A DNA stretch of 64,000 bases, from NCBI GenBank assembly GCA_963803165.1, contig CAWDLK010000003.1:42513-106512 (forward strand). The letters are read 5' to 3'. A model generated the notes under the pieces. It saw only the letters and a program-made list of their open reading frames with translations, was not told where the DNA came from and ran no database searches. The stretch comes from an uncultured Chloroflexia bacterium. Lineage in GTDB: Bacteria; Chloroflexota; Dormibacteria; Aeolococcales; Aeolococcaceae. The first letter of the stretch is position 1; each line of letters begins with the position of its first letter. The position numbers and the translations under genes are program-made. Positions 804 to 24,751 of the stretch are shown one piece after another.

Positions 804-2074
804 CGCTCGCCGGTGCCGGGGTCGTCCAGGCCGAAGGCCTCGCGGAGGCGAAGCACCATCCCGGGGTCCTCCGCCGCGCCGCGCAGATGGGTGACGGGAG
901 CGTGGAGCAGCTTGCGGACGAGGCTGCGGCTCAGCCGGTCGATCCGCTCCGCGACGTCGGCGTCGCCGGCGGGCAGGCGGGCCAGGGTCCGCTCCACCTC
1001 GCGGCGGCGGATGGCCTCCGCGCGCTCCAGGAGGGCCCGGATGGTGGGGGTGGAGGCATCGCGCTGGCTGAGCACCGCCAGGGTCCTCTCCACCTCCTCG
1101 CTGACCAGGGCGGTGGCGGCCGCGATCGCCTTGCCGTGCTCACCGAGGCCGCCCCCGATGCGGCGGCCCAGCTCGTCGATGTCGATCAGGGTGACCCCCG
1201 GCAGACCGGCGACGTCCGGGGCGATGTCCCGGGGCACGGCCATGTCGATGAGGCAGAGCGGACGTCCGCCCCGCGTCTCCTGAACGGCCGCGCAGAGCTC
1301 ACGGTCGATCACCGGCTCGGCGCTGGTGGTGGCGGTGACCACCAGGTCGCACCCGGCCATGGCCTCGGCGAGGCTCCCGGTGCCGACCATGGTCGCCCCG
1401 AGCTGGGCCGCGAGCGCGGCCGCCGAGGCCCCGCCCCGGGAGCTCACCTGGAGCCGCGCGCCCATCCGGCGCAGGCGGCGGGCGGCCAGGGCGCTCATCT
1501 TGCCGGCACCGACGATCAGCGCCGCACGGTCCTCCAGGCTGCCCAGGACCTGGCCGGCGATCGACATCGCCGCCTCGCTGAGGCTGCCGGCACCGCGACC
1601 GAGGGACGTCTGGGTGCGGACCAGCTTGGCGGAGCCGATGGCGCGCCGAAAGACGAAGTCGAGCTGCGCGTCGAGGCTTCCCGTCTCCAGGGCCAGGCGC
1701 AGCGCCGACTTGACCTGGCCGAGAACCTGGGTCTCGCCCACGACCATGGACTCGAGACCCGCGGCGACGCGGAAGAGGTGCGCCACCGCCTGCTCGCCGG
1801 GGAAGACGACCACATTGCCGGAGGGGGTGCCGCCCCCCGCGGGGTCGAGGTAGCGGCGCAGCCGCGAGACGACCTCCTCCTCGTCGGCCCCGTCGTGGAG
1901 GCTGACGTAGAGCTCGGTGCGGTTGCAGGTCGAGATGGCCGCGGCACCGCTCAGACCGCCGTGTCCGATCAGGAACCGGAGAAGGCGGCGGGCCTCAGGG
2001 TCGGGCAGCGCGGCCCGCTCCCGGACCTCGAGGGGGGCGGTGCGAAAGCTGATCCCGGCGGCGATCAGGCGCAT
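800..2074 (-). CDS. hemA: glutamyl-tRNA reductase
   Basis: 424 aa; N-terminus MRLIAAGISFRTAPLEVRE and catalytic TCNRTELY motif; NADPH-binding GAGKMS; hemA-hemC order typical. Confidence 0.92.
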   Translation of the reverse strand: MRLIAAGISFRTAPLEVRERAALPDPEARRLLRFLIGHGGLSGAAAISTCNRTELYVSLHDGADEEEVVSRLRRYLDPAGGGTPSGNVVVFPGEQAVAHLFRVAAGLESMVVGETQVLGQVKSALRLALETGSLDAQLDFVFRRAIGSAKLVRTQTSLGRGAGSLSEAAMSIAGQVLGSLEDRAALIVGAGKMSALAARRLRRMGARLQVSSRGGASAAALAAQLGATMVGTGSLAEAMAGCDLVVTATTSAEPVIDRELCAAVQETRGGRPLCLIDMAVPRDIAPDVAGLPGVTLIDIDELGRRIGGGLGEHGKAIAAATALVSEEVERTLAVLSQRDASTPTIRALLERAEAIRRREVERTLARLPAGDADVAERIDRLSRSLVRKLLHAPVTHLRGAAEDPGMVLRLREAFGLDDPGTGER

Positions 2075-4905: not shown

Positions 4906-5961
4906 TCAGATGCGCCGGCCGACGACGTAGTCGCAGGCCGCCTCCAGCGTGAGGCGGGCCGGGGAGGGCGGGAACGCCGCCAGCTCGGCGCGCGCCTCGC
5001 GGGCAAACTCCTGGGCCGCGCTCTCGGTCGCCGCCACCGCGCCGCTGCGCCGGACCAGCTCGACGACCAGCTCGTAGTCGAGTTCGCCGTGGGGCTGGTG
5101 CCCCACCGCGCGGGCCAGCTCGGGACCCACCTCCGGGTCCTGGAGCGCGAGCATGAAGGGAAGCGTCACGGTCCCCTGCCGGAGGTCCGCCCCCACCGGC
5201 TTGCCCAGCTCCGCCTCGGTGGCGACGTAGTCGAGGAGGTCGTCGGCGATCTGGAAGGCCATCCCCAGCCGGTGGCCGTAGCGCTGCAGCGCCGCCCGCT
5301 GCGGCGGCTCGAGGCCGCCCACCACCGCGCCGCAGAAGCAGCAGGTGGCGACCAGGGTCGCCGTCTTGCGGGCGATCTTGCGGTGGTAGTCCTCCAGCGA
5401 CTGGTGATAGTCGTCCTTGCTGGTCATCTGGAGGAGCTCGCCCATGCAGATGGTCATCACCGTGTTGCTGATGGCGGAGTCGATGAGCGGCTCGCCGATG
5501 CCGGCGGTGAGGTTCGCGCCCTTGGCGAAGTAGTAGTCGCCGATGATGATCGCCGGGGCCGGACCCATCGTCTCGTGGAGCGTGGTCATGCCCCGCCGCG
5601 TGGGCGAGCGGTCGATGAGGTCGTCGTGCACCAGGGTGGCGGTGTGGATGAACTCGATGCCCATCGCCAGGTCGTAGACGTGGTCCATCTGGGGGTGGCC
5701 GAGCCGCGAGGTGAGGATGACCAGCGCGGGGCGGATGCGCTTGCCCCCGGCGCGCACGATGTGACGCATCGCCTCGGCCATCGGTCCCAGGTCGGCGGCG
5801 ACCGCCGCCTCGAGACGGCCCTCGAACTCGGCCAGCTCCGCCAGGATCGGCTCGAAGAGCGCCTGCGTCTCGCTCGTCACGGGAGCCGCGGCGTCCGTCT
5901 TCGGGGGCCACCTCCGGGTGGGCTCCTCCATCGCCTGACGGAGAGCTCCGCTCGCGTCCAT
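4906..5961 (-). CDS. polyprenyl diphosphate synthase (trans-isoprenyl diphosphate synthase family)
   Basis: FARM LVHDDLIDRSPTRRG and SARM FQIADDLLD motifs; the track ORF (446 aa) has an RS/RP-rich N-terminal extension that overlaps murD; start placed at the internal Met (MDASGALRQA), giving ~351 aa, typical for the family. Confidence 0.85.
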   Translation of the reverse strand: MDASGALRQAMEEPTRRWPPKTDAAAPVTSETQALFEPILAELAEFEGRLEAAVAADLGPMAEAMRHIVRAGGKRIRPALVILTSRLGHPQMDHVYDLAMGIEFIHTATLVHDDLIDRSPTRRGMTTLHETMGPAPAIIIGDYYFAKGANLTAGIGEPLIDSAISNTVMTICMGELLQMTSKDDYHQSLEDYHRKIARKTATLVATCCFCGAVVGGLEPPQRAALQRYGHRLGMAFQIADDLLDYVATEAELGKPVGADLRQGTVTLPFMLALQDPEVGPELARAVGHQPHGELDYELVVELVRRSGAVAATESAAQEFAREARAELAAFPPSPARLTLEAACDYVVGRRI

Positions 5962-6052
5962 CTGTGAACGGAGGATATCAGCCGAGCCGGGCACGACCCG
6001 CCCCGGAGCGGGGCCGGCAGCACCTCGCCGGCCGCCCGCGGGCCGGCTCGCC

Positions 6053-7438
6053 TCACCCCGGGGTGGACGCCTTCGCCGCACCGCCGCCCCCCTTGACCCT
6101 GAGCTCGGCGACCAGCGCCCGGAAGGCGTCCCCCCGCTCCTCGAAGTCCCGGAAGGCGCCGTAGCTGGGGGCCGCCGGGGAGAGCAGCACCACCGAGCCC
6201 GGGACACTCCGCTCGACGGCGAGCTGGACGGCCTCGGCGAGGTCATGGGCGCCGGCCAGCGGCGGCGCCCCGGGGGCTCCGCGGAGGTCGCCGGCCAGCC
6301 GCTCGCCGCTCGGAGGCAGCGTCACCACCGCCAGCACGCCGGGTCGCGCACAGAGGCGGCGCACCAGGGGGGCGTGGTCCTGACCGCGATCGAATCCTCC
6401 CGCGATGAGGACCACCGGCCGCTCCTCCAGGGCGTCGAGGGCGGCCACCGCCGCCTCCGGGATGGTCGCGATGCTGTCGTTGACGAAGCCCACCCGGTCG
6501 ACCTCGCCGACCGGTTCGAGGCGGTGACGCAGCGGCTGGAAGTCGCAGAGCGCCGCCACCCGCGACCTCGCGTCGACGCCGGCCTCCTCCACGGCGGCGA
6601 GGGCGGCGCAGGCGTTGAGCAGGTTGTGCCGGCCCCGGAGCTGGAGCCCGGCGCCATCCAGCAGCCGCTCCTCGCCCCGGACGATCCAGCCGCCGTCCAG
6701 GTGGTATCCGGCGGGGTCCCCGAACCAGACGTGGCGGCCGGGCAGCGACGCCGCACGGCGGCGGGTCCCCTCGTCCTCGCGATTGAGGACGCAGGTCCCA
6801 TCCGGGCGATGGCCGAAGAGGTTGAGCTTGTCGGCGACGTACCGCTCCTCGCTGCCGTGCCAGTCCAGATGCTCCCGGTAGAGGTTGAGGAGGACGCCGA
6901 TGCGCGGCGACCGCTCCAGGTCGCTGGTCTGATGGCTGGAGAGCTCGAGCACCCAGAGGTCGGGCGCGGGGTCGGGCGCGAGCCAGCGCAGCAGGGGAAC
7001 GCCGATGTTGCCGGCCAGCACGGTCCGCAGCCCGGCCGCCCGCGCCAGGTGGTCGACCAGCGAGCTGGTGGTGCTCTTGCCCTTGGAGCCGGTGACCGCG
7101 ATCACCCGATCGTCGGCGTGCTCGGCGAACCAGAGGTTGGTCGCCGTGGTCACCCGGGTCGCGGCGGCCACCCGCCGAGCGTCGTCGCGATAGCGGCTGA
7201 TCCCGGGCGAGCGGATGACCACGTCGCATGCCGAGAGGCGGTCCACGCCGGCGGGGCCGTGCAGCCATTGCCGCGCGGGCGCGGCCTCCCGCTCCGTCTC
7301 GGAGGGGGCCGCGTCGGTCACGATCAGGACCTCCCCGGGAGGGACGGGCAGCGCCTCCAGCGCCTCCAGCGAGGCCCGGCCCTCGCGCCCGAACCCCCAG
7401 AGGCCGGCCCGCCGCCCGCCGAGCTCAGCCAAGCGCAT
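6053..7438 (-). CDS. murD: UDP-N-acetylmuramoylalanine--glutamate ligase (MurD-type Mur ligase); located outside any dcw cluster and overlapping murL-like gene, so probably the L-Glu-adding MurD2 type
   Basis: 461 aa; P-loop VIAVTGSKGKSTT, Mur ligase middle/C domains, C-terminal SPAAPSYGAFRDFEERGDAF as in MurD; 14-nt overlap with upstream PP-loop gene. Confidence 0.85.
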   Translation of the reverse strand: MRLAELGGRRAGLWGFGREGRASLEALEALPVPPGEVLIVTDAAPSETEREAAPARQWLHGPAGVDRLSACDVVIRSPGISRYRDDARRVAAATRVTTATNLWFAEHADDRVIAVTGSKGKSTTSSLVDHLARAAGLRTVLAGNIGVPLLRWLAPDPAPDLWVLELSSHQTSDLERSPRIGVLLNLYREHLDWHGSEERYVADKLNLFGHRPDGTCVLNREDEGTRRRAASLPGRHVWFGDPAGYHLDGGWIVRGEERLLDGAGLQLRGRHNLLNACAALAAVEEAGVDARSRVAALCDFQPLRHRLEPVGEVDRVGFVNDSIATIPEAAVAALDALEERPVVLIAGGFDRGQDHAPLVRRLCARPGVLAVVTLPPSGERLAGDLRGAPGAPPLAGAHDLAEAVQLAVERSVPGSVVLLSPAAPSYGAFRDFEERGDAFRALVAELRVKGGGGAAKASTPG

Positions 7439-8798
7439 CGGCGAAGCCTCGGTAGGCCGCCGGGAGCGCGTGCACCGCGGAGGGGTGGAAGACCGCCTGG
7501 ACGGCGCCGGCCGTCAGCGAGGCGACCCGCGGCTCCGCGCCCAGCGCCCTCACCACCGCCGCGTCGCGCCAGCTCTCCGCGGCCGCCAGCAGGTGCATGG
7601 CCACCCTCGCCTCCTCCACCTCGCCCACGCACTCCAGCGGCTTGTCGGCATCCAGCCCGAGCAGGGCGGCGAAGCCACCCAGCTGGCCCGCGTCATCGAG
7701 CGGGTCGACGCCCATGATCGAGACAATGCTGTCCCTATCCAGGAAGGGAGCCAGCGCCAGCGCCACGAACCGGCACTTGGGGCAGTCGCCGCACCAGCTG
7801 GGGGTGCGCCGGTCGCGGTCGAGCAGGTAAGCCCGGTTGCAGCTGACGAAGGCCCGGTGGTACGCGGGGAGGGCGGCGAAGCGCCGGGCGATGGCCAGCT
7901 CCGACCACGGCCGCAGCAGGGAGAAGTAGACGAGGTCCGCCGCCACCCGCTCGGTGACCACGGCGGCGAAGCGCCGCTCGAAGTCCCAGCTCTTGCTGTA
8001 TTGGTGGTTGACCTCGACGCCGTCCCAGACCAGGCTGGGAGCGGACGCCGAGCGCTCGTCGGCCATCACGACCTCGTCCGCACCGTGGACCAGAGCGGCG
8101 ATCACCGCCAGGCAGGAGGTGATCGCGGTCACCGGGACGTGGCCGTTGTAGGCGCCGCCCCGGTTGAGCTCGAGCAGCGCGGGGTCGAGGGTGCGGGTGA
8201 CGGTCACGTGGGGGAGCCCGGCGACGGCGGCGGTGCGCTGCACCGCGGACGCCGACCCGACGCTGAAGAGCAGCGGCTCGGGCCCGGCGGCGCGCACCGC
8301 CTCCAGGACCACGATCGAGTCCTTGCCGCCGCCGACCGGCACCAGCGGCCGGTCGGGGAGGCCGGCCCGGCCCGCCGCGGCGGACGCCCCGCCGGCGGAG
8401 GGGAAGGTGGGGATGGCGCGCCCGCGCAGGCCGTTGACGAAGCGGCACTCGGCGAGGCCGGCCGTGTAGAGGTGGCGCAGGAACGCGGCCAGCTCGGCGC
8501 CGGGAAGCTCGCCCTCGATGGAGATCTCCGGGGCGAAGCAGGCCTTGTAGTAGCTGACCCCGGCCACCAGGTGGAGGAGCCGGATGGCACGCTCCAGCGC
8601 CGACATCCGCTCCGGGCTCAGCCCGGTGACCGGCGTCCCCAGCTCGACCAGCTCGTGGAGCTCCTCGGCGTCGAGGCCGTAGCCGAGGTCGATCCGACCG
8701 GTCTCCGCCACCAGCCGGCAGTCGAGGAAGCGGAACCGGCGGACGGTGTCGGGAGCGAATGCGGGGGCCGGCACCGGCGGCCGCTCGGGAACGGGCAC
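7425..8798 (-). CDS. murL: PP-loop ATP pyrophosphatase-like protein with C-terminal Cys cluster; candidate UDP-MurNAc-L-Ala-L-Glu epimerase (MurL-like)
   Basis: 457 aa; PP-loop PVGGGKDS (SGGxDS type); C-terminal CNRAY...SWCGDCPKCRF four-Cys cluster; directly upstream of and overlapping a MurD-type ligase, the arrangement reported for murD2-murL. Confidence 0.65.
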   Translation of the reverse strand: MPVPERPPVPAPAFAPDTVRRFRFLDCRLVAETGRIDLGYGLDAEELHELVELGTPVTGLSPERMSALERAIRLLHLVAGVSYYKACFAPEISIEGELPGAELAAFLRHLYTAGLAECRFVNGLRGRAIPTFPSAGGASAAAGRAGLPDRPLVPVGGGKDSIVVLEAVRAAGPEPLLFSVGSASAVQRTAAVAGLPHVTVTRTLDPALLELNRGGAYNGHVPVTAITSCLAVIAALVHGADEVVMADERSASAPSLVWDGVEVNHQYSKSWDFERRFAAVVTERVAADLVYFSLLRPWSELAIARRFAALPAYHRAFVSCNRAYLLDRDRRTPSWCGDCPKCRFVALALAPFLDRDSIVSIMGVDPLDDAGQLGGFAALLGLDADKPLECVGEVEEARVAMHLLAAAESWRDAAVVRALGAEPRVASLTAGAVQAVFHPSAVHALPAAYRGFADALG

Positions 8799-8821
8799 CG
8801 GCCCAGTATGCGAGCGCGAGA

Positions 8822-9880
8822 TCAGGTGGTGGCCCAGCTCTCCCGACCTGCGCCGGGGATCCCGCCGCGGACGGCGTGCGGGGTGACCAGCCAGTCACCG
8901 ACCCGGGCGCGCAGCCCCGGAGCGTTGAGCACCGAGACGTGCCCCTGCGGGTAGCTCCACAGCTCGGCGCCCCAGGCCTCGGCCAGCGCGGCCATGGGCG
9001 CGTCCCCGACCACGCCGTCCAGGGTGGGGCGCACGATGGCGATCCGCCCTCCCGAGGTGACGGGCGGACGGAAGGTGCGGGCCACGATGGGGGCGAGAGC
9101 GGCCCCGACCACGTGGCGGGCGGCATCGCGGTCGGGACCCCAGATGCCGCCGGCGTCCCCCTCCAGCCCCACCTCGCGGCGGATGCGCCCGGGCAGGTGA
9201 TCCATGACGGTGCCCGCCGGGTCACAGAAGGGGGCGATGGCGACGACCGAGTCCAGCTCGAGGTGGGCCGCGAGGAGCACCGCCATCAGCCCTCCCAAGG
9301 AGGTGCCACAGACCGCGATCCGGTCGCTCACCTCGCTGCGCGCCCAGGCGAGCACCGCCGCGCAGTCCTCCACCGACTGGCGGACGATCTCGCGCGTCCA
9401 GCGGAGGTCGGCGCGGATGTAGCCCTCGCCGCTCCTCGTCCCGGCCCGGCGGCGGCGCAGGTGCAGCGGGAGGTCGATCCGGGCGGCGTGGGCGCCATTC
9501 CGAGTCAGCGCGCGGCAGCGCCGCTCCTCGTACCAGGGCCGCGGCTCCAGCAGCCCATGGACCATCAGCACGAAGGGGAGGTCGCGCCTTCCCGGCACCA
9601 CGTGAGCGGTGGCCTCGAGACGCCGGCTGCCGGGATCGTCTCCCGGGCCCCGACTGGGCCCGGTGAGGTCGCGGACCTCCACCCCACGCCCGTAGCGGCG
9701 AAGGACCGGACCGGCGACAATCGGCGCGGGGTCGTGGACCCGGCTCTCGGCCCAGAACCCGCGGGGATCAGCGGGCGCCCAGCTGTCGGGGGGCGGCGGC
9801 TCCACCGGGAGGCGGGCGAGCTGCCAGCGCACCCCCGCATCCATCGCCCGCGCGATCACCTCGCCGACCCGGTCGAGCAC
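8822..9880 (-). CDS. alpha/beta hydrolase fold protein
   Basis: 352 aa; nucleophile elbow GTSLGG (GxSxG), HGLLE oxyanion-region motif. Confidence 0.7.
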   Translation of the reverse strand: MLDRVGEVIARAMDAGVRWQLARLPVEPPPPDSWAPADPRGFWAESRVHDPAPIVAGPVLRRYGRGVEVRDLTGPSRGPGDDPGSRRLEATAHVVPGRRDLPFVLMVHGLLEPRPWYEERRCRALTRNGAHAARIDLPLHLRRRRAGTRSGEGYIRADLRWTREIVRQSVEDCAAVLAWARSEVSDRIAVCGTSLGGLMAVLLAAHLELDSVVAIAPFCDPAGTVMDHLPGRIRREVGLEGDAGGIWGPDRDAARHVVGAALAPIVARTFRPPVTSGGRIAIVRPTLDGVVGDAPMAALAEAWGAELWSYPQGHVSVLNAPGLRARVGDWLVTPHAVRGGIPGAGRESWATT

Positions 9881-10009
9881 TGCAGCTCCTCGCAGCAGAA
9901 CGGTCCCGCGCTCAATGTACCCCGGCCGCCGTCTTCCGAGACGCGGGAGCCCCGGACCTCGCCCACGTACGGCCGGCGCGGTCGGGACGCCCCGGCGAGT
10001 ACCGGGCCC

Positions 10010-10095
10010 GGGGATCGAACCCGGACGGGGACGTGGCCCCCGCGGTTTTTAAGACCGCTGCGTCTGCCGATTCCGCCAGCCCGGTGCAGGGATGC
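10010..10095 (-). tRNA. tRNA-Leu (anticodon UAA, reads UUA/UUG), type II long variable arm, 86 nt, CCA not encoded
   Basis: Manual fold of the reverse complement: acceptor ACCGGGC/GCCCGGT, D-arm TGGCGGAATCGGCAGACGC (Leu-like GCG/CGC 3-bp stem), anticodon stem GCGGT/ACCGC with loop CTTAAAA (U33, UAA, A37), variable arm GGGGGCCACGTCCCCGT, T-arm CCGGG-TTCGATC-CCCGG, discriminator A. Confidence 0.75.
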
Positions 10096-10127
10096 CAGTC
10101 TATCCCCCGGCCCTATACTGCGGACGG

Positions 10128-10694
10128 ATGTTCGCCAGGTGGGCCTCCGGCTCCAGCTACCGCCGCAGCCAGCAGGCCACCGGCGTGCCGGTCCGCCCCA
10201 GCGCGATCGCCCGGGGCCTGACCCTCCGAGTCCTCGACGTCGGCGAGGAGGCCTCCGAGAGGGAGCGCATCGCCCAGCACCTGGTCGACGAGCTGAGCCG
10301 GGCGGCGGGGCTCCCGCCCTGCCAGGTCGTGGTCCCCGACCGTCCCCAGGTGCACCGCCATGACGGCCGCCGGCTGCAGTCCAAGACGTACGGCTACTAC
10401 AGCTACCGGCTCGATGCCCAGGGTGGGGTGGCCTGGGCGCGGATCCGCATCTACCACCGCACCGCGGTGCAGCAGCGGGTCATCTCCTCCAAGGTCTTCC
10501 TCAACACGCTGCTCCACGAGTGGGTCCACCACTACGACTTCCACGGCCTCCGGCTGCCCCGCTCGTACCACACGAGCGGCTTCTTCGCGCGGCTGCGAGC
10601 GCTGGCCGACGCGCTGGAGGTGGGATTCGTCCTGCCCCCGGAGCCCGACGCCACGCCGGCACCCGGCGAGCCCGGCCCGGCCGCCGCGGGCTAG
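10128..10694 (+). CDS. hypothetical protein with HExxH zinc-metallopeptidase-like motif
   Basis: LLHEWVHHYDFHG (HEWVH = HExxH); the annotated ATG at 10092 overlaps tRNA-Leu, so start moved to the Met at 10128 (MFARW). Confidence 0.5.
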   Translation: MFARWASGSSYRRSQQATGVPVRPSAIARGLTLRVLDVGEEASERERIAQHLVDELSRAAGLPPCQVVVPDRPQVHRHDGRRLQSKTYGYYSYRLDAQGGVAWARIRIYHRTAVQQRVISSKVFLNTLLHEWVHHYDFHGLRLPRSYHTSGFFARLRALADALEVGFVLPPEPDATPAPGEPGPAAAG

Positions 10695-10746
10695 TGGCCG
10701 CGGCTCCGACGCGCACCGAGGGGGGGCTTGGCTAGAGTTCACAGCG

Positions 10747-10784
10747 CGGCGACGTAGCCAAGTGGTAAGGCACGGGTCTGCAAA
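10747..10784 (+). repeat. 38-nt direct repeat = 5' half of tRNA-Cys(GCA) (positions -1 to 37); putative left att site of integrated island
   Basis: cggcgacgtagccaagtggtaaggcacgggtctgcaaa is identical to 24751..24788 (5' half of the intact tRNA-Cys); identity stops inside the anticodon loop. Confidence 0.8.
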
Positions 10785-11035
10785 TCGCCGCGATCGGTGT
10801 CCTTGGGCGTCCAGCGCCGTCCTAATCGCAGCCGCCCGAATTCGGGAAACGGCCTCGGTAGTGCGTTTCGAACGACGTCGGACGCCCAGAGGCGTGCGAA
10901 AACTCGTCTCGGGCGGACGAGAAGGTGTCAAGAAAGGTGTCAGCCCCTGGGCTTCGCAGACCCGCCGGACGTGACCGCCGCGACCAACCAGCACCCCTCT
11001 GACGCGCCTCCGTTACAGACGGTGCCGCTCCTGGA

Positions 11036-11428
11036 TCAGGCGATCGGCACCACCCAGAAATGAAGCTCGGGTAGCGGTTCGTAGTCGAGTGTCGCTTCGA
11101 TGACACCTTCACCCGGCCCGTAAGTGGGAAAGCGTAGCTCAGACACAACGTTCAGGTAGGCCCGCCCCGCTGGGTCCGTGCCGGCCGCCCTCAGCGGCAG
11201 CTCGGACCAGGGCAGCACCTCCAAACCGCCGTGAGAGATGCGCAGGCGTAGCCAGTGAACGGGCCGGATCTCCCACTGCTCGAGTTGTATGCGCGTGAGC
11301 AAGCGGATCTGGTTGGTCGCGGGGAACGATCTCACGTTGAGCTGGTCGACGCCGGCCGACCGGATGTCAATGAGGCCTTCTCGGTTGATCCTAGCCTCGT
11401 TGGCGAGTAATTGAGCGAGAACCTTCAC
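11036..11428 (-). CDS. hypothetical protein, translationally coupled to hicA-like gene (GTGA overlap)
   Basis: Track ORF 11036..11473 overlaps hicA by 49 nt from its ATG; an in-frame GTG at 11428 gives a 4-nt overlap with the hicA stop; no recognisable domain. Confidence 0.35.
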   Translation of the reverse strand: MKVLAQLLANEARINREGLIDIRSAGVDQLNVRSFPATNQIRLLTRIQLEQWEIRPVHWLRLRISHGGLEVLPWSELPLRAAGTDPAGRAYLNVVSELRFPTYGPGEGVIEATLDYEPLPELHFWVVPIA

Positions 11429-11634
11429 CGCAGCCTTTCGGCCTCCTCCTTGGTGATGCCCGCCTGCCGCCATATGGAGCTGAGCACCCCCCGCGTCACC
11501 TCCTTCTTGTTGCGCGGGACGGTTACGGTCCGAGGATGTCCGTCCTTCACGTATTGGTCCTCGCCGGTGCGGCGATCCCGGGTGAAGCCAAGCTTCTGGA
11601 GCACCCTACCCACATCCTGGCTTGACCAGGTCAC
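11425..11634 (-). CDS. hicA: HicA family toxin-like protein (YcfA/HicA fold, type II TA)
   Basis: 69 aa; VGRVLQKLGF...GHPRTVTVPRNKKEVTRGVLSSIWRQAGIT matches the HicA pattern (..G..V..GSH..F....G..TVPHP.KDL..GTL.SILKQAGL). Confidence 0.65.
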   Translation of the reverse strand: MTWSSQDVGRVLQKLGFTRDRRTGEDQYVKDGHPRTVTVPRNKKEVTRGVLSSIWRQAGITKEEAERLR

Positions 11635-11666
11635 CCGGGTGGGCCGCGTCTGTCAAGGTGGTGTAA

Positions 11667-12979
11667 GAGAGACCGACGCCATCCGCGCGTCGATCGACTC
11701 GTTCACGCTGCTGCGGTGATCGCGGGCAAGCCCTCCGTGTCGATGGTGGAGTAGGTCTTGGTGAGCGACTCGGCGCTCATGTAGCGGCGGCCCACGGCCC
11801 ACTCGTCGTTCTGCTCGGCGAGCACGGCCCCGACCAGGCGGATGACCGCGTCGCGGTTGGGGAAGATGCCGACCACGTCGGTGCGTCGACGGAGCTCCTT
11901 GTTGAGCCGCTCCTGGGGGTTGTTGGACCAGATCTGGCGCCAGTGCTCCTTGGCGAAGGCGGTGAAGGCCAGCAGGTCGGGGGTCGCCTCCTCGAGCAGA
12001 TCGGCCGCCCGCGGGAAGCGCTCGCGGAGCTGCTCCACGATCCGGCCGTGCTGGGCCCAGGTCGAGGTGGCGTCGGGCTGGGCAAAGGTGGAGCGCACCA
12101 GGGTGGCCACCGCGGCCTGGGCGGATCGGGGCACCCGGCTCAGCAGGTTGCGCATGAAGTGGGTCCGGCACCGCTGCCAGCTGGCGCCGTCGAGGATGGC
12201 GGCGATGGCGTTCTTGAGCCCTTCGTGGGCGTCGGAGATCACCAGCCGGACCCCACGCAGTCCTCGGGCCACCAGGCCCCGCAGGAAGGCCGTCCAGGCG
12301 GCTCCATCCTCGGCGCTGACCACGTCGACGCCCAGGATCTCCCGCTTGCCCTCAGCGGTCACCCCGGTGGCAACGACGGCACAGACGTTGACGATCCGGC
12401 CGTCTTCGCGGACCCGCTGGGTCAGGGCGTCGACCCAGACGTAGGGGTAGCCGGCGGGGTCCAGCGGCCGGTTGCGGAAGCTCGCCACCATCGGGTCCAG
12501 CTCCTGGGCCATGGCGCTCACCTGGGACTTGCTCAGCCGCTCGATGCCGAGCGTCCGGACCAGACCCTCGACCCGGCGGGTGGAGACGCCGCGGACATAG
12601 CACTCGGCCACCACCGCCACCAGGGCCCGCTCCGATCGCCGGCGCTGCTCCAAGAGCCAGTCCGGGAAGTAGCTGCCCGAGCGCAGCTTGGGGATGGCCA
12701 GGTCGATCGTACCCGTTCGGGTGTCCCAGGTCCGCTCCCGGTACCCGTTGCGGGAGTTCACCCGCTCCGGGGTCCGCTCGCCATAGCCGGCCCCGCAGAG
12801 GCTGTCGACCTCCGCGTTCATCAGGGCGCCGGCGAAGGTCGTGATCATCTCCCGCAACAGGTCGGCGTCAGCCGCCTCCACCTGCTTGCGGAACCAGGTC
12901 AGGGCATCCATGCTGGGTGTGGCCACCGTCATCTCCTCGAGGTTGGTGATGCTTCCTCAAAGGATGGCGGTGGTCTCTC
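11667..12979. mobile_element. IS256-family insertion sequence (~1.3 kb) with ~18-bp imperfect terminal inverted repeats
   Basis: IRs GAGAGACCGACGCCATCC (11667..11684) and GAGAGACCACCGCCATCC (reverse complement of 12962..12979), 16/18 match; encloses the Mutator/IS256 transposase. Confidence 0.75.
11703..12932 (-). CDS. IS256 family (Mutator-type) transposase
   Basis: 409 aa; typical IS256 transposase sequence (…DGRIVNVCAVVATGVTAEGKREILG…ISDAHEGLKNAI…WQRCRTHFMRN…), DDE residues spaced as in the family. Confidence 0.9.
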   Translation of the reverse strand: MTVATPSMDALTWFRKQVEAADADLLREMITTFAGALMNAEVDSLCGAGYGERTPERVNSRNGYRERTWDTRTGTIDLAIPKLRSGSYFPDWLLEQRRRSERALVAVVAECYVRGVSTRRVEGLVRTLGIERLSKSQVSAMAQELDPMVASFRNRPLDPAGYPYVWVDALTQRVREDGRIVNVCAVVATGVTAEGKREILGVDVVSAEDGAAWTAFLRGLVARGLRGVRLVISDAHEGLKNAIAAILDGASWQRCRTHFMRNLLSRVPRSAQAAVATLVRSTFAQPDATSTWAQHGRIVEQLRERFPRAADLLEEATPDLLAFTAFAKEHWRQIWSNNPQERLNKELRRRTDVVGIFPNRDAVIRLVGAVLAEQNDEWAVGRRYMSAESLTKTYSTIDTEGLPAITAAA

Positions 12980-13043
12980 CCTTTGTGGAGACCCTCAGGC
13001 TCCTCGTACACCACGTCCCTGGACGCTAACCCCGGCTTCCCCG

Positions 13044-13397
13044 TCAGGCGGGAAAGTGCAAGATCACTGGCACTCCCTGGCCAGGGTCGTGGCTGAGGAG
13101 AAACTCAGCGTGGGCCTCCTTCGGCACCGGGAACCCGGGGCTGATCCCCCGCTCCGCGGCCAGGGCCTGAGCATCATGCACCGCTTGCTGGAGGGCGCTC
13201 AAGGCTGCCTCAGCGCTCTCAGCTTGCGTCGCGATGTCGAGCTCTAGGCAGAGCGCGGCCCACTGACCGCCGCCCTGGTACGCCGCTACCCCCGTGAGGG
13301 TCGCCACTGGCGCAGCCGGCAACCCACCGGGCAGGCGTTGCTCATCCGTCGCGGTGGCGACGGACTCCACGCGGAAGTCACAGAGAGCGATCGTCAT
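13044..13397 (-). CDS. hypothetical protein; weak resemblance to HicB/UPF0150 antitoxin N-terminal domain
   Basis: 117 aa; segment GGQWAALCLELDIATQAESAEAALSALQQAVHD resembles the HicB-like core (W.A...DLPG....G.T.EEAL.N..EAI); on the same strand as and upstream of hicA, separated from it by the IS256. Confidence 0.3.
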   Translation of the reverse strand: MTIALCDFRVESVATATDEQRLPGGLPAAPVATLTGVAAYQGGGQWAALCLELDIATQAESAEAALSALQQAVHDAQALAAERGISPGFPVPKEAHAEFLLSHDPGQGVPVILHFPA

Positions 13398-13565
13398 CGC
13401 CGATAATCATGCTCCCGGCGACCGCGGTGCCGGGAGCCGAAGCTCGATTGTGTCAATCGCGGCCCGCCTCGGCACCGGTCGCCGCAAGGTTGCCGCGGTC
13501 GTCCTCGACGTCCCGCCGGGACCGCCGGGGATCTCGATTCGCCACGCCAGAGCCCCTCGCCGCCC

Positions 13566-15089
13566 TCAACCGAAGGGGGTCTGGGTCCACTGGAGCCCGC
13601 CGTCCTGGGTGGTCCAGATGCTGTGTGGGTCGCCGATCCACCACCCGACCTGCGCACTCTCGAAGCCCAGCCATGCCGGACTGCCCGCCTGGGTCAGCTG
13701 CTGAGTATCGGTCGCGGTGGCGGTCCAGTGGTCTCCTGCGTCCGTCGAGACGAGCACTTCGGCGGTGAAGGATCCATTGCCACCGATGGGGCCGGTGGAG
13801 ACGGCAAGGACATTCGGGCTGGCAGCCGCCAGCAGGGCAAGAACCTGCACGTCGGGCAGGCTGCCTGTCGATGTCCAGACCCCGCCGCTGTCGGTGGAGG
13901 TGACGACGAAGGTGCCGCTCCCCGTATGCGGGCTGCACAGCCCGGCGTAGAAGCCGCCCGGGGCTGAGGTCAGATCGATGAGGTCCTCCTCCGTGCTCGT
14001 GCCGGTGGCTCCCTGGCCGGAGCACGGGTCGCTCGTCGTCTGCCAGGTGGACCCTCCGTCGGTCGACCGATAGACAGTCGCCTGCGCCGACGTCGGGCCG
14101 GCCTGGCTCCCGTACAGGGCGACCAGCAGCGCGGAGCCTGAGGCGGCGATCTGCGCGGAGTCACTGCGATCCGGGTACGCCAACTGGGCGATCAGCGTGT
14201 GCCACACGCTGGATCCGATCGCCGCATCCTGCAGGGTGGGATTGCACGGTCCGGGGCAACCGCCGCTGTCATAGGCGACGCGATAGGCATAGCCATCGGC
14301 GACGGTGAGCGTCTCCACCTGCAGCCCCAACTGCGGCTGCCAGTTGAGGCCTCCATCGGTGGTCATGAGCAGCCTTGGCCCGTACAGGTAGCCGACCGTC
14401 GGGCTGGCGAAGGCCAGCTCGCTGACGCAGGCAATGCTGGAGCAGTCGGCGGACCCGGTCTGGACCTGCGCCGGCGGGTCGGGCAGCGCCTGCCACTGCG
14501 CTCCGCCATCGGTGGTGTGTGCCAGGACGGCACAGCTTCCCGTGGCGCATGGCTGCACCGCGAGCGCCCATCCCTCGGTGGTGCTGATCCAGCTGAGATC
14601 CAGGAGGGAGGCATCCGCCAGGCTCGGCGCCGCGGTCGTCGAGAAGGACAACGGCGCGCTGGCCATGGGCGGCGGGCTCGGTGGCCCCTTGGGGCCGAGC
14701 TTGATCACCACCGCAACCAGGAGGCACTGGTCCTGACATGCGGTCGTCGTCTGGTTCGACCCGCTGAAGGCAGACGCCTGCGCGGTGAAAGCTCCCGAGG
14801 CGGTGCCGGTGGTCCCCGTGTACAGGGTGATGCCCGAGTCTTCACCGCAACTGCTCGCGCCACCAGCGGAGGGCGATCCGGCGCACTCGTAGACCGACAC
14901 CGTGGCGTCCAGGGGGAACTCACTCAGGCGCACCTGCAGCTGCTGACCGCCGACCAGCCCCGCGCTCGGCGAGACGCTCAGGGCGGGCGAAGCAGTCGCT
15001 GACGGGCTGGTCGACGCCGTTGGCCCCCGCGACGGGCCGGCCACGCTCGGCCCGCACCCGAGGGCGAACAGCGCAAGACCGGTGGCCAT
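13566..15089 (-). CDS. BNR/Asp-box repeat lipoprotein (Ycf48/sialidase-like beta-propeller)
   Basis: Lipobox LALFALGC; repeated SxDGGxxW motifs (TTDGGAQW, TTDGGLNW, STDGGSTW, TQDGGLQW); start moved to the Met at 15089 preceding the signal peptide. Confidence 0.7.
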   Translation of the reverse strand: MATGLALFALGCGPSVAGPSRGPTASTSPSATASPALSVSPSAGLVGGQQLQVRLSEFPLDATVSVYECAGSPSAGGASSCGEDSGITLYTGTTGTASGAFTAQASAFSGSNQTTTACQDQCLLVAVVIKLGPKGPPSPPPMASAPLSFSTTAAPSLADASLLDLSWISTTEGWALAVQPCATGSCAVLAHTTDGGAQWQALPDPPAQVQTGSADCSSIACVSELAFASPTVGYLYGPRLLMTTDGGLNWQPQLGLQVETLTVADGYAYRVAYDSGGCPGPCNPTLQDAAIGSSVWHTLIAQLAYPDRSDSAQIAASGSALLVALYGSQAGPTSAQATVYRSTDGGSTWQTTSDPCSGQGATGTSTEEDLIDLTSAPGGFYAGLCSPHTGSGTFVVTSTDSGGVWTSTGSLPDVQVLALLAAASPNVLAVSTGPIGGNGSFTAEVLVSTDAGDHWTATATDTQQLTQAGSPAWLGFESAQVGWWIGDPHSIWTTQDGGLQWTQTPFG

Positions 15090-15845
15090 GATGCATGGCA
15101 GACGGGCATGGGAGCGCCCGTGTTCCCGGGAAGGCGCACACCCTTCCACGAACGCCATCACCGAGACGGCAAGCACGCCCACAGGTCTCACCGGCGGCTC
15201 CTCGAACCTGGTCAAGCATATGACGCCGCGAGGGCCCTATCTGTTACGCGGACCGGTGCGGCTGGGCAAACCGCCAGCCGTCGCACGCACCTCCGACGCG
15301 GCCGACCAACACCGGCTGTGACAGCGGCGGCGCCTCCTGCCGCCGTGCCGCCGCCGCGGATTCTGCTCAGTCGACCTACACCCAGCCAACCGATCGGCCC
15401 AAGCGCGTCACCTCTGGGGCGGTTGTTAGCCAGATCAGAGCCGCCGACCGAGGGGATTCGAGAAATCGTTGCTAAATCGCCTCGGGGAGCGCGGACTCGA
15501 ACCGCGGACCCCTGGTCCCCCAGACGCACCAGGCACATCGTTGACGGCGTAGGCGTCACGCATCTGAATACACGGAGCCGCGCCAAACCGCACCCAGCCG
15601 CACCGCTGTGAAGGGCAGTTGGCATCGAGTCTGGCATCGCCCGTAGGGCCACCGACCCTGGTATGGCGTCGCCACGGGAAGTATGGCGACCGCACAACAT
15701 CCATTGCGCTCGCATAGGTTTCGACCCCTGGTCCGCCTCGAACTCCGGACCCCTCGTCCCGTACAAGGTGCCTCCCGCCGCCTCGAGGGCGTCGGAAGGG
15801 GCTAGCTGCCGGAGACCACGAGGCAGTCGCAGCGGCGGCAATATC

Positions 15846-15875
15846 GGCCACGGCCACGGCCACGGCCACGGCCAG
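15846..15875. repeat. hexanucleotide microsatellite (GGCCAC)x5
   Basis: ggccacggccacggccacggccacggccag read directly; lies in non-coding island DNA. Confidence 0.85.
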
Positions 15876-16092
15876 CCAAGATGCGCTACTAACGAGGGCA
15901 GATGATCGCCAGTAAGTCAGTGCTCTCGTCGCCGGGGGACTTCATCCATGACTCACAAGACTCGGGGCGATCCCCGCGCCGGACTAAACCCGCCTACCTA
16001 CGTTCCGCGTCTGCTACGCTCAATTCCGCCTTCGGGCACCGCCCCTCGGGGCCAGCTACCTACGGGTCCACACCTCCAAGGAGGTCACGCCG

Positions 16093-16986
16093 ATGCTCAC
16101 CCTTACCCCCTTCGAGCGAAGCCTGCGCGCCCTGCTGGTCGAACACCTCCGCGACGCGGGCGGCGATCAGGACAAGGCCCTCATCACCGAGGAGGACCTC
16201 GACGCACGCATCGCTTCCCGCCCGCGGCACGGCAGCGACGCCCTCCGACCGCCCCACGACCGCTTCTTCCAAGCGTTGAGCCACATCTGCATCTACGAGG
16301 ACGAGCACGGACGGCCGCTTCTCGGCGCCATCGTGGTCGTCGAGAGCACGCGCCGCCCCGGCGATTGGTTTCAGCGCCTCACCGGCCACCTTGGGTTCGA
16401 GACCACCGGCACACGCCTCTGGTCGGACGAGCTGGACGCGCTCATCGATCTCTGGTCGTGGCAGCTCGCCCCGGACACCCTCGTCATCGCCGACATCATC
16501 GACCGTGGCGTCGAGACGCTAGACGCTCATGTCCGCGCTCTTGAGCGTTCCGTGCGCCGGGGCAGCCGTCTCCCCTACCTCAGCCGATCCGCTTCCTGGC
16601 CGTGCCAGCGCAACCACGACTTCATCCCGATGCTCCGGGCCAAGAACGTCGGCGACGCTCCGGCCGTCGATGCCCTCTACTGGGGCATGTCGAACTTCGC
16701 GCCCGCGCACCGCTCGGACCCCTTCAGCCTCGCCGCTGGCGAGGGGCCCGTCGACATCCCGCTGCGTCACTCCCCCACGACGCTCATGCGCGAGGTGATG
16801 GGCGATATGGTCGACGACGTCGCCGAGGTCCTCGTGTACGGCGACGGCGCCGGGCGCTGGCTGCGCCAGCGCCCCCACCTGGCCCAGCGCGCCGACGTCT
16901 GGGTCGACGACGGCCGCGCCGATCCGCCCGCCTGGCTCGCCTGGTACCGCACCATGCTCCGCGAGATTGGCTTGCGCCGTTCCTGA
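16093..16986 (+). CDS. hypothetical protein (297 aa), no recognisable domain
   Basis: Strong RBS AAGGAGG 8 nt upstream of ATG (16073..16080); coherent non-repetitive protein composition; inside island. Confidence 0.6.
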   Translation: MLTLTPFERSLRALLVEHLRDAGGDQDKALITEEDLDARIASRPRHGSDALRPPHDRFFQALSHICIYEDEHGRPLLGAIVVVESTRRPGDWFQRLTGHLGFETTGTRLWSDELDALIDLWSWQLAPDTLVIADIIDRGVETLDAHVRALERSVRRGSRLPYLSRSASWPCQRNHDFIPMLRAKNVGDAPAVDALYWGMSNFAPAHRSDPFSLAAGEGPVDIPLRHSPTTLMREVMGDMVDDVAEVLVYGDGAGRWLRQRPHLAQRADVWVDDGRADPPAWLAWYRTMLREIGLRRS

Positions 16987-17093
16987 ACCCACGCGCCAAC
17001 TCCCTGCAGCGCGATCGCCAGGGCTAGACGTTGCCGTGATTGCTGCCACGCATCACATGCACGAGTAGATGCGACACGCCGCGCAACCTCGAT

Positions 17094-18266
17094 CTACGGT
17101 GGGGCTTGCACATCGCTCCCCGGTAAGGCCTCCATAGGTCCAAGGTGGTAGCCAAGCGACCAAAGTCCGTATGCCACCTCGCGGAAGCAGTCGTAGCTGG
17201 CAAGCCACGCTCGAGCGTTACGGCACTCTGCATCCCGTGGCTCCCACCGGAACCCGTGTTGTGCCATGAAGGAGAGGACTTCGCTTGTCTCGGCGCGTGG
17301 CTGATCGACGGCTAAGTGCCTGGCCACGAGTGCCACGGGGCTGCGGTCAGACGCGTCGAGAGGTGAGCCGAGCGCAAATTCAGACACCCGCTCACCAGCG
17401 GCCATCATCCTCTCCAGTTCTGCCATCAAAGGGGGCCCGACCTCTTTTGCTATTGTGGCGACGCGCTCTCGTATCGACCGTCCGCGCTCGCTTCTCAAGT
17501 AAGCCACCAGAAGCCCAACCGCCACGAGGCCTAACGCCAGCGCTGCCTCCCGTCCGATTGTGCTGGCTAGCTTCTTCGCCCCGCTTACCCCGGCGTACCC
17601 GACGGCGCGCGCCGCGAGCTCGACGCCGTTGACACTGATGCCCATCTCCCCGAGCGTGTAGACATCCACGGCCACGGCGTCTGTCTTGGTATCCGGCAGG
17701 CCCAGCGGACGGAAATCACGACGGTTGTCCGTGACGAGGACGCTAGGTGCGAGGAGTAGAGCCAGCGCTGCTGTCGGGGCATCTGCGGCGTGGAGCGTAG
17801 CCACAGCCGCCACGCGCTGGTCCATCATCGCCTCTGGCGGAACCGGAACCACTCGGACGTTGGGAACGATTACATCGTTCCACACCAGGCGCACGCCTTC
17901 CACGTCTCCCCGGCGATCTGCTATATCCCGCAAGTGGCGGATCGCCTCCTCCATGACACATGGCGTGGCGAACAGGGCGATCCCGGTCCAAATGCTGTAC
18001 CCGGGACTCGCGCGACCGAGCAGTGCCGGCTTGTAGCCCTTGCGAACCGCGTAGTCCACATTGCGGATCAAGACGTCAGCGTCCACAACCACTGGGGTCG
18101 GAAAGAGAAGTGCCCCGCGGCCGGCGGCCCCACTCCTGGGCCCGCTCAACGGTCCTTCCAAACTATTAGCCCTCTGCACTCGGATGCCCGCCAAGGCCCT
18201 GAGCGCGATCCGGTTCTGCCACCGTAGCCCGGGTATCCCCCGGAATCGACGCCGACGCGGCCGCAA
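17094..18266 (-). CDS. PIN-domain protein fused to a C-terminal region with a transmembrane helix; start uncertain (N-terminal ~50 codons overlap upstream gene)
   Basis: PIN acidic residues in order: VVVDADVLI ... CVMEEAIRHL ... LHAADAPTAALALLL ... VLVTDNRRDF; predicted TM ALALGLVAVGLLVAYL; ~150 aa C-terminal domain of unknown function. Confidence 0.55.
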   Translation of the reverse strand: MRPRRRRFRGIPGLRWQNRIALRALAGIRVQRANSLEGPLSGPRSGAAGRGALLFPTPVVVDADVLIRNVDYAVRKGYKPALLGRASPGYSIWTGIALFATPCVMEEAIRHLRDIADRRGDVEGVRLVWNDVIVPNVRVVPVPPEAMMDQRVAAVATLHAADAPTAALALLLAPSVLVTDNRRDFRPLGLPDTKTDAVAVDVYTLGEMGISVNGVELAARAVGYAGVSGAKKLASTIGREAALALGLVAVGLLVAYLRSERGRSIRERVATIAKEVGPPLMAELERMMAAGERVSEFALGSPLDASDRSPVALVARHLAVDQPRAETSEVLSFMAQHGFRWEPRDAECRNARAWLASYDCFREVAYGLWSLGYHLGPMEALPGSDVQAPP

Positions 18267-18858
18267 CTGGCAGGTCCGCCGCCTCCTGCTCCATCGCGTC
18301 GATGACGAAGTCGATCTCGCGACGGGAAACGCTCACGAAGTGGAACCGGGTGACCCATGACCCGTCCCCTGAGGTAAGCGTCTGAGCCAAGTCCTGGTAC
18401 TGCACGAAGCCGTTGGCACCGGCCAAGTAGTCGGCAGGCAGGGGCCCACCCCCTAAAGCCGGCAGCTGGAGAGGAGGGTCTAACCGAGCATCCAGGCACT
18501 CACCGGCGGCGATGATTCCCGCGAGGATTCGGCGCTCCACTGGCGGACCATCCCCATTCCTCGTCGTGAGCACGCCGCGGACGTTGAACGCCGGCCCGCG
18601 CCCGCCGTTCTTCAAGGGCAGCAGGAGATCGCCGCTCTCATAACGCGTGTCGGCCCTTCCAGAGATGTAGTCCGCCGGCAGGTGGGGACAAACCACGGCG
18701 TGCTGCGCCCCCCATTCCCGAGCCCAGGCGTCGCTCAGCGCCTCCTTGCGATCGCGCTGCTCCCTCCGGATCGCGCGAGCATTCCAGACAAACCCACCCG
18801 TGCCGAGCACCACGGAAACGAGCAGGGATGACAGGGCGATCCAGAACGATCCGTCCAT
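18166..18858 (-). CDS. hypothetical membrane-anchored protein (N-terminal TM helix)
   Basis: 230 aa; N-terminal WIALSSLLVSVVLGTGGFVW hydrophobic helix then soluble domain; sits between the 500-aa gene and the PIN gene on the same strand. Confidence 0.45.
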   Translation of the reverse strand: MDGSFWIALSSLLVSVVLGTGGFVWNARAIRREQRDRKEALSDAWAREWGAQHAVVCPHLPADYISGRADTRYESGDLLLPLKNGGRGPAFNVRGVLTTRNGDGPPVERRILAGIIAAGECLDARLDPPLQLPALGGGPLPADYLAGANGFVQYQDLAQTLTSGDGSWVTRFHFVSVSRREIDFVIDAMEQEAADLPVAAASASIPGDTRATVAEPDRAQGLGGHPSAEG

Positions 18859-18924
18859 GCGGTCCAGAATGCTACCCGGCGCGTGCGCAACTCATTGGCG
18901 CCATCCAAACCCTGGGAGCAGCCA

Positions 18925-20427: not shown

Positions 20428-20602
20428 CTCCGTCGTACGCCGGGGCGCGTTCCGGGTGCCTGCAAGCGACTAAGCCAGATGGAGGCCCGGTGCGTGGGGG
20501 TGCCGCGAGTCCCGACCAAGCTGGCGGCCCAGGCGGTAGCCGGGGTGACGGCGAGAGCGAAGAGAAGGGCAACGAGGGGAACGAAGCGACGGGCAGCGGT
20601 GC

Positions 20603-21103
20603 TCACGGCTCGGTGTCCGGAGGCGGGGGCAGGATCGAGACCAACTCGCCGGTGATCTGCACCCCATGGTGGTCGATGAGCTCCTGGAGGTACAGGCCGA
20701 GCTGTCCGCGGAGCTTCCCGAGTGCCTCATGGAGCGCCCCGGACTCGGGGCCCCAGCCGACGGGTCCACCCCACCGGCGACTACGCAGACCCCGCTGCAC
20801 TTCATCGAGGAATGCCCGGCACGCGGCTGCCATCCTCCGCAGGGTCACAGCGAGGTCAACGTCGCGGGGAAGGCGTCCGATCTCGTCAACGAGGTGACGC
20901 CGGATTTCGATGACCGAGACCACGCAGTGGTCGAGGATCTCGATGTCCAGCGGGTTGTATAGGACCCGGCGATCCTCCAGGAACGCGACCAGTCTTGCGA
21001 GCACCTCCTTCTCGACATCCGGTAGGTTCTCCCAGCCAACGCCACCGCCGACGACGGGAAGGCTCACGCTGGTGAGCCGCTTGCGGATACGAGGCCGCGG
21101 CAT
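20603..21103 (-). CDS. hypothetical protein (166 aa)
   Basis: Coherent composition, same strand and upstream of 500-aa gene; no motif recognised. Confidence 0.4.
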   Translation of the reverse strand: MPRPRIRKRLTSVSLPVVGGGVGWENLPDVEKEVLARLVAFLEDRRVLYNPLDIEILDHCVVSVIEIRRHLVDEIGRLPRDVDLAVTLRRMAAACRAFLDEVQRGLRSRRWGGPVGWGPESGALHEALGKLRGQLGLYLQELIDHHGVQITGELVSILPPPPDTEP

Positions 21104-22780: not shown

Positions 22781-22825
22781 CCCCGGGGGTCCAGGAACGG
22801 GGCGGTCCCCTCCACGCTCCTCTGG

Positions 22826-23077: not shown

Positions 23078-23086
23078 GACCCCATC

Positions 23087-24648: not shown

Positions 24649-24751
24649 GTCCCCGGCCGTTGCAGCAGCGCGGGGACTTCACACCTCTAGATGCTATAAG
24701 GTGTCAGATAGGGTGTCAACCTGATACCTTATGAGCGAAATTCCCTGACAC

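Follow-up and report, generated by a model that had tools for sequence, protein, structure and literature searches.

A two-gene route for bringing D-glutamate (D-Glu) into peptidoglycan is known from Xanthomonas oryzae, whose MurD2 (XOO_1320) and MurL (XOO_1319) were described by Feng et al. (2017; reviewed in PMC8788868 and PMC5808125). In vitro activity of the pair has been reported from X. oryzae, Micromonospora sp. and Salinispora tropica and from no other source, and the known carriers are Xanthomonadales, a few Alphaproteobacteria and four genera of Micromonosporaceae (PMC8788868); an older review also mentions homologues of low similarity from cyanobacteria, a fungus and an amoeba. MurL needs ATP, forms AMP and converts L-Glu to D-Glu in one direction only, and the reviews describe it as a protein without known domains (PMC8788868, PMC5808125). 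Here we describe an overlapping gene pair, murL and murD2, in a 64,000-nucleotide stretch of DNA (the window; contig CAWDLK010000003.1 of assembly GCA_963803165.1, positions 42,513 to 106,512) from an uncultured bacterium. An earlier note, made from the sequence alone, had matched this pair to the MurD2/MurL system.

The match is borne out by a full-length relationship of one product to MurL (NF041275) and by MurD2-type residues in the other at experimentally defined specificity positions. Judged from sequence, the pair is very probably (roughly 90%) a murL-murD2 operon providing this alternative route for D-Glu into peptidoglycan in Candidatus Dormibacteria. By homology, MurD2 would join L-Glu, not D-Glu, with UDP-MurNAc-L-Ala, converting ATP to ADP and phosphate, and MurL would then irreversibly turn the terminal L-Glu into D-Glu with cleavage of a second ATP to AMP and pyrophosphate (PPi); free D-Glu would be unnecessary, and so would glutamate racemase. 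The earlier note named some Xanthomonadales and Actinobacteria as carriers; the present organism, labelled Candidatus Dormibacteria by NCBI, belongs to neither. Our literature search found no paper tying the MurD2/MurL pathway to Dormibacterota. This is a new lineage for a known system, from a class absent among the known carriers and with genes that public annotation misnames or leaves unnamed.

The murL-murD2 gene pair

The murL gene (7425..8798, minus strand) starts at a GTG codon and encodes a 457-residue product matching NF041275, and murD2 (6053..7438, minus strand) starts at an ATG codon and encodes a 461-residue product matching TIGR01087, PF08245 and PF02875. Their 14-nt overlap (7425..7438, minus strand), read directly from the sequence as ATGCGCTTGGCTGA, is exactly that reported in the earlier note, and a GAGG lies 9-12 nt 5′ of the murD2 ATG. 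Both open reading frames (ORFs) have a third-position GC content (GC3) of 0.93-0.94 (murL, 0.94) compared with ~0.55 at second positions, and because GC3 so far exceeds second-position GC in DNA that is 75% GC, these are real genes rather than spurious ORFs. The GTG start of murL is supported by its homologues, which start MPVP(E/D). The overlap suggests that murL and murD2 are co-made through translational coupling, and the murL-murD2 junctions overlap or abut in the closest relatives as well. A scan of coordinates 4000-10800 for promoters and terminators found none on the minus strand, and the 'terminator-like' matches on the plus strand fall inside a tRNA-Leu gene that lies on the opposite strand.

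Relationship of the upstream product to MurL

The sole NCBIfam match of the murL product is NF041275 (UDP-N-acetyl-alpha-D-muramoyl-L-alanyl-L-glutamate epimerase; E=1.2e-138, 462 bits), and the alignment spans profile positions 4-439 of 447, such that homology to characterised MurL is full length. The precomputed public record for the exact product lists the Pfam families PF26299 MurL_N and PF26298 MurL_epimerase_C. These families appear only in such precomputed records, and our own Pfam scan of the whole protein or its core domain gave no match at E<=10. Neither Pfam nor NCBIfam yielded a sequence match to QueC or tRNA-modification families, with none for the core domain in Pfam even at E<=10, and a sequence search of the PDB with MurL returned no match at E<=1. 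Identity to the Micromonospora and Salinispora homologues is 44-47%. The locus thus resembles the X. oryzae, Micromonospora and Salinispora system in having the same two families, adjacent to one another, with a full-length MurL match and every invariant MurL motif (GGGKDS, NGH, ERS, NHQxSK, SCN, WCxxCxKCRF and ECVGE).

The PVGGGKDS loop and the C-terminal CxxC-containing cysteine cluster (WCGDCPKC) noted previously are both present. GGGKDS (residues 156-161; 8316..8333, minus strand) is a PP-loop-like motif and the predicted ATP/pyrophosphate-binding loop. The cluster Cys320…Cys336-x2-Cys339-x2-Cys342 (7773..7841, minus strand), which includes WCGDCPKC, is a predicted structural zinc site of the QueC type. 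A fifth cysteine, Cys390 in the ECVGE motif (7629..7631, minus strand), is a candidate catalytic acid/base. All of these, together with H220, E248, H265 and K269, are invariant in 81/81 homologous loci.

An AlphaFold2 model of MurL built from 56 homologues (predicted local distance difference test score, pLDDT, 93.5; predicted template modelling score, pTM, 0.93) has a Rossmann-like core with an N-terminal PP-loop, as in the QueC-like branch of the PP-loop superfamily. Foldseek searches with this model rank QatC, QueC and Cap9 at the top, with 15-21% identity in the structural alignments, and the C320…C336xxC339xxC342 pattern matches the zinc motif of QatC and QueC. On this model MurL is a QueC-like PP-loop ATP pyrophosphatase that forms a separate family within the QueC-like branch. 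It differs from QueC, Cap9 and QatC in having GGGKDS in place of the classic SGGxDS loop, and in carrying extra domains at the N-terminus (residues ~1-145) and the C-terminus (helical, ~355-457). Its substrate would also differ, being a UDP-muramyl dipeptide, and the outcome would be epimerisation with hydrolysis, not conjugation or the making of an amide or nitrile. Nor is it QueC proper (preQ0 synthase), as it falls outside QueC by sequence membership. The earlier note held that alignment of this protein to QueC-type or tRNA-modification families would count against MurL. The lack of any such sequence match favours MurL, but 'QueC-type' and 'MurL' are not true alternatives, since MurL is itself QueC-like in fold.

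Predicted glutamate specificity of the ligase

The MurD features picked out in the earlier note, the P-loop GSKGKST (7070..7090, minus strand) and the motif SPAAPSYGAFRDFEERGDAF, are both confirmed by translation. The ligase scores 304.7 bits against TIGR01087 (the MurD equivalog; cutoff 212), contains Mur_ligase_M (PF08245) and Mur_ligase_C (PF02875), and is 32% identical to Escherichia coli MurD over the full length and 45% identical to Salinispora MurD2. When aligned to E. coli MurD (from PDB 2jff and the K-12 gene), it shares with the canonical enzyme (E. coli b0088; PDB 2jff, 1uag) the three-domain Mur ligase organization and a P-loop of the form GxxGKS/T, and it retains equivalents of E. 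coli K115, N138, E157, H183, the carbamylated K198, T321, S415 and F422.

Five specificity positions are nonetheless altered relative to E. coli MurD: D182→E189, K319→I323, K348→R351, A414→P424 and L416→Y426. Precisely these positions were tied to glutamate stereochemistry by the Dairi group, the X. oryzae MurD2 residues being E197, R358, P433 and F435 (PMC8788868). Glu189 (6872..6874; E. coli Asp182, X. oryzae Glu197) and Arg351 (6386..6388; E. coli Lys348, X. oryzae Arg358) occupy stereospecificity positions, and Ile323 (6470..6472) corresponds to E. coli Lys319. Pro424-Ser425-Tyr426 (6161..6169; all four on the minus strand) was placed by alignment and translation opposite E. coli Ala414-Ser415-Leu416 and X. 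oryzae Pro433/Phe435. The ligase thus has Glu, Arg and Pro at the E197, R358 and P433 positions as X. oryzae MurD2 does, an aromatic residue at F435 and no Lys at K319; unlike X. oryzae MurD2, but like the Micromonospora and Salinispora enzymes, it has Tyr instead of Phe at F435.

The same signature is common among ligases encoded next to murL. The four-position pattern E-R-P-Y/F is found in 56 of 73 murL-linked ligases, including those at all Micromonospora and Salinispora loci with an adjacent ligase. In a 37-sequence subset used for single positions, Glu is present at the Glu189 position in 34, Arg at the Arg351 position in all 37, and Ile or Leu at the Ile323 position in 36, with Lys in none. 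Mutational data bear on three of these residues: the E197D/R358K double mutation turns X. oryzae MurD2 to D-Glu, and K319T makes E. coli MurD able to accept L-Glu (PMC8788868).

Several points weigh against identifying the pair as murL and murD2. The MurL score of 462 bits is below the curated NF041275 cutoff of 700, and the protein falls outside the Xanthomonadales equivalog. NF041275 is, however, the MurL_Xanthmoales equivalog and tuned to Xanthomonadales. Because its cutoff is clade-specific and the Micromonospora (406 bits) and Salinispora (398 bits) homologues score lower still, the sub-cutoff score is no argument against MurL function; homologues from a Lysobacterales metagenome-assembled genome (MAG), Thermoleophilia and Sericytochromatia score 508, 467 and 497 bits, respectively. 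For the ligase, E. coli MurD carrying D182E/K348R remains D-specific and does not accept L-Glu, Streptococcus mutans MurD uses D-Glu despite an Arg at the K348 position, and P433A and F435L left the stereospecificity of X. oryzae MurD2 unaltered (PMC8788868). The residue signature is therefore necessary in X. oryzae MurD2 but not proven sufficient. Finally, the MurL mechanism outlined below would, beyond the ATP-to-AMP step, rest on fold and conservation as regards the oxazolone, Cys390 as base and the zinc.

Linkage, gene fusions and position relative to the dcw cluster

The earlier note had remarked that the ligase gene is not flanked by mraY or ftsW, and tblastn searches with E. coli MurE, MurF, MraY, MurD, FtsW, MurG, MurC, Ddl, FtsZ and MurI find only the ligase in the 64-kb window, placing the pair outside a dcw cluster. 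The arrangement thus differs from canonical MurD plus MurI both in gene position and in the coupling of the ligase to murL, with presumably no reliance on free D-Glu. A different organization is present in the Thermoleophilia. Five loci (L009, L012, L014, L018 and L048; each about 6300..19500) contain a dcw cluster with the order murE-murF-mraY-murL-murD2-ftsW-murG-murC…ftsZ as determined by tblastn, and a sixth, shorter locus (L026) has murF-mraY-murL-murD2. Because murL-murD2 fills the canonical murD slot between mraY and ftsW, MurD2 replaces MurD in these organisms and is not its companion. The earlier note's proposal that lack of another murD in the genome would make this ligase the canonical enzyme is therefore invalid.

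These comparisons bear on the possibility that MurD2 and MurL are genuine but redundant or conditional, the genome also encoding a canonical dcw MurD together with either MurI or a D-amino-acid aminotransferase, and with the pair serving as a back-up or under specific stress. The position of the pair outside any dcw cluster in this clade would fit such a role. We consider it unlikely, as organisms bearing the pair are reported to be without D-Glu-forming genes (PMC8788868), the Thermoleophilia relatives have the pair in the murD slot itself, and conservation of the locus throughout the class is what a housekeeping function would lead one to expect. E. coli MurI gives no tblastn match in the 64-kb window or in any compared locus, which is uninformative for the remainder of the genome, and no second MurD is found in the window or its 10-kb flanks, which is likewise uninformative for the whole genome.

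Class-wide conservation is evident from a nine-gene neighbourhood (orf200, hydrolase, murL, murD2, polyprenyl synthase, orf214, an endonuclease/exonuclease/phosphatase-family gene, an RNase T-like gene and hemA) that seven relatives share, as does a distant Dormibacteria MAG with only 55% identity in the ligase. The murL-murD2 locus is thus old and chromosomal in the class, not a recent import. Rough neighbour-joining trees for MurL and for MurD2 largely agree, and the window proteins fall in one clade with Thermoleophilia as its sister group in both.

Linkage of the two genes extends well beyond this class. A scan of one genome per species turned up at least 389 loci that encode MurL. The best 80 were taken for comparison, and a MurD-type gene is directly beside murL in ~72 of these 80 species genomes, which span several phyla; adjacency recurring at this frequency is not due to chance. 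The genes are co-directional in most lineages, as in the window with its 14-nt overlap, in contrast to the Micromonosporaceae where they are divergent. In three loci (L013, L019 and L027, from Candidatus Venteria, Thiomargarita and Thiotrichales) the murL homologues, 44-46% identical, are without an adjacent MurD-type gene; in L013 the gene beside murL, on the opposite strand, is MurF-like and has 48% identity to E. coli MurF.

The two functions are also found within single polypeptides. An exhaustive HMMER search of 1.84 billion cluster representatives (clusters at 50% identity) returned 1,176 MurL clusters at E<=1e-30, several of which are metagenomic proteins of 830-914 residues as called. 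In P0258, P0274, P0313 and P0352 an NCBIfam scan identifies an N-terminal MurL and a C-terminal MurD-type ligase, the same order as that of the genes here. The ligase half has MurD2-type residues in all nine long proteins aligned (these four together with P0270, P0356, P0357, P0376 and P0385). Such fusions speak independently for a joint function of the two activities. A further fusion, in the 918-residue P0264, joins an aspartate kinase (residues 2-473) to MurL (478-916). That kinase supplies the diaminopimelate/lysine branch, which leads to the next peptidoglycan residue.

It is very improbable, then, that the ligase is an ordinary D-Glu-adding MurD with an unrelated QueC-like neighbour involved in, for example, deazapurine or tRNA modification. 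The NCBI name is that of a D-glutamate ligase, the TIGR01087 cutoff is passed, and the upstream fold is closest to QueC, Cap9 and QatC, all as that explanation would have it. Yet the upstream protein matches MurL over its full length and no QueC or tRNA-modification family by sequence, and in the ligase the D, K and K of D-Glu ligases such as E. coli MurD are replaced by E, I and R. The adjacency across phyla, the fused forms and the placement within dcw clusters are also at odds with it. We can dismiss as less probable still an action on another acceptor or amino acid, in a secondary cell-envelope polymer or natural product instead of the main peptidoglycan precursor, since although the adjoining genes encode an alpha/beta hydrolase and a trans-polyprenyl synthase and are not cell-wall genes, and a GNAT acetyltransferase intervenes between hydrolase and murL in one distant relative, the examined MurD contact residues for UDP-MurNAc-L-Ala and Glu are conserved (the stereospecificity positions excepted), the nearest non-Dormibacteria relatives sit in dcw clusters, and no biosynthetic-cluster genes are nearby.

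A possible mechanism for MurL

If the pair is indeed murL-murD2, the modelled QueC-like fold fits the reported ATP-to-AMP chemistry of MurL. QueC-family enzymes AMPylate carboxyl oxygens, the chemistry that defines the superfamily being AMPylation of a carboxyl or keto oxygen as PPi is released, and the C…CxxCxxC motif, also conserved in QueC, binds a structural zinc in QatC (PMC13376578). An iron-sulphur cluster at the MurL cysteine motif, as in TtuA, NcsA and some LarE proteins, was considered and is less likely than zinc, as QueC and QatC are the nearest folds and have the same CxxCxxC spacing. The GGGKDS loop may bind ATP and the alpha-carboxylate of the terminal Glu may be adenylylated. 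The C-alpha proton, activated in the acyl-adenylate or in an oxazolone made with the Ala carbonyl, could then be inverted by one or two invariant groups, candidates being Cys390, His220, His265, Lys269 and Glu248. Hydrolysis by water would free the D-product.

A broader picture can be drawn in which MurD2/MurL is widespread and anciently inherited, provides the sole route to D-Glu in entire lineages, Candidatus Dormibacteria and Thermoleophilia among them, and includes a MurL that is a zinc-containing, QueC-like PP-loop enzyme acting through an acyl-adenylate or oxazolone with Cys390 or a His/Lys pair as base. Taken as a whole this is tentative, and we put its chances at somewhat short of even. 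Membership of MurL in a QueC-like PP-loop family does offer concrete residues for mutational work on the mechanism.

Lineage and public annotation

The exact ligase sequence is also present in GCA_052139795.1 and two European Nucleotide Archive (ENA) assemblies, and its NCBI name is 'MAG: UDP-N-acetylmuramoyl-L-alanine--D-glutamate ligase [Candidatus Dormibacteria bacterium]'. Among the best 80, the closest genomes (72-78% identity in MurL) are MAGs that carry the label Dormiibacterota, 'uncultured Chloroflexia' or 'uncultured Actinomycetes', and the Micromonosporaceae and Xanthomonadales MurL homologues are 44-47% identical to the window protein. Carriers of MurL include Dormibacteria, Thermoleophilia, Acidimicrobiia, Sericytochromatia, Thiotrichales and Bdellovibrionales. 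The range of the pathway is thus far wider than published, which widens the expected spectrum of MurD2 or MurL inhibitors.

In public annotation (P0121, P0022 and P0040), NCBI calls orthologues of MurD2 'D-glutamate ligase' and some orthologues of MurL 'endonuclease domain-containing protein'. Close MurL homologues are publicly named 'hypothetical' or 'endonuclease domain-containing', and the window MurL is without a source name. Because of these names, a reconstruction of Dormibacteria metabolism would mistakenly conclude that D-Glu supply is missing or that the pathway is canonical. Some records of the Joint Genome Institute (JGI) already say L-glutamate ligase or L-glutamate epimerase.

Neighbouring genes and a probable genomic island

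The window clade is unlike the known carriers in having a hydrolase gene upstream and a polyprenyl synthase gene downstream of the pair. The alpha/beta hydrolase (8822..9880, minus strand; 352 residues with a GTSLGG nucleophile motif and a weak PF12146 match) ends 23 nt before murL and is probably co-transcribed with it. It is conserved at this position only in the Dormibacteria-like clade, and is a clade-specific neighbour with no known part in the MurD2/MurL system. The acetyltransferase gene of the distant relative (L087) is at 1503..2036 of that locus. In another assembly of the same organism (L082 7870..10014; ERZ25039540 contig_5865) murL is called at only 305 residues and the hydrolase at 312 residues, and a second Mutator-family transposase is nearby; indel errors in that assembly, or strain variation, are the probable cause.

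Upstream of the hydrolase, a tRNA-Leu(UAA) gene identified by ARAGORN (9999..10085, minus strand) marks the upstream limit of the gene block. It is found at the same place in five relatives and is absent from the Rfam listing at the gathering threshold. Beyond it, an ORF at 10092..10694 (plus strand; 200 residues) has a HEWVHH (HExxH-like) motif and no Pfam match, is 75-87% conserved in all close relatives, and diverges from the tRNA-Leu/hydrolase/murL block.

The earlier note had also cited a polyprenyl diphosphate synthase and a class A penicillin-binding protein (PBP) as context; both are real, but neither adds anything in that capacity. The synthase gene (4906..5931, minus strand; 341 residues, PF00348 E=7e-64) has its called start at 5931, 121 nt past the murD2 stop. 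Its best NCBIfam matches are HepT and hexaprenyl (also solanesyl) synthases, all below cutoff, and the product is HepT/IspB-like. A role in making the cell-wall lipid carrier was rejected, as this is a trans-type (PF00348) enzyme and not a cis-type undecaprenyl diphosphate synthase. In seven Lysobacterales/Gammaproteobacteria loci (L015, L024, L028, L032, L037, L043 and L044) a trans-polyprenyl synthase gene, its product 31-38% identical to that in the window, is convergent with and 1-2 kb downstream of murD2. The neighbourhood of murD2 and a polyprenyl synthase thus recurs in two very distant lineages. The PBP gene (39039..41471; PF00912 and PF00905) was rejected as supporting context, as it is 30 kb from the pair and past a ~14-kb integrated island.

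This putative island (10700..24825) is between orf200 and a tRNA-Cys(GCA) gene (24752..24825), and its GC content of 0.66-0.70 is lower than the 0.74-0.77 around murL. It contains a HicA-like toxin gene, a Mutator/IS256-family transposase (11703..12932) and a tyrosine integrase (23356..24678) that abuts the tRNA-Cys gene. In one relative (L002) orf200 and tRNA-Cys are ~0.2 kb apart, and the segment looks like a genomic island integrated at tRNA-Cys.

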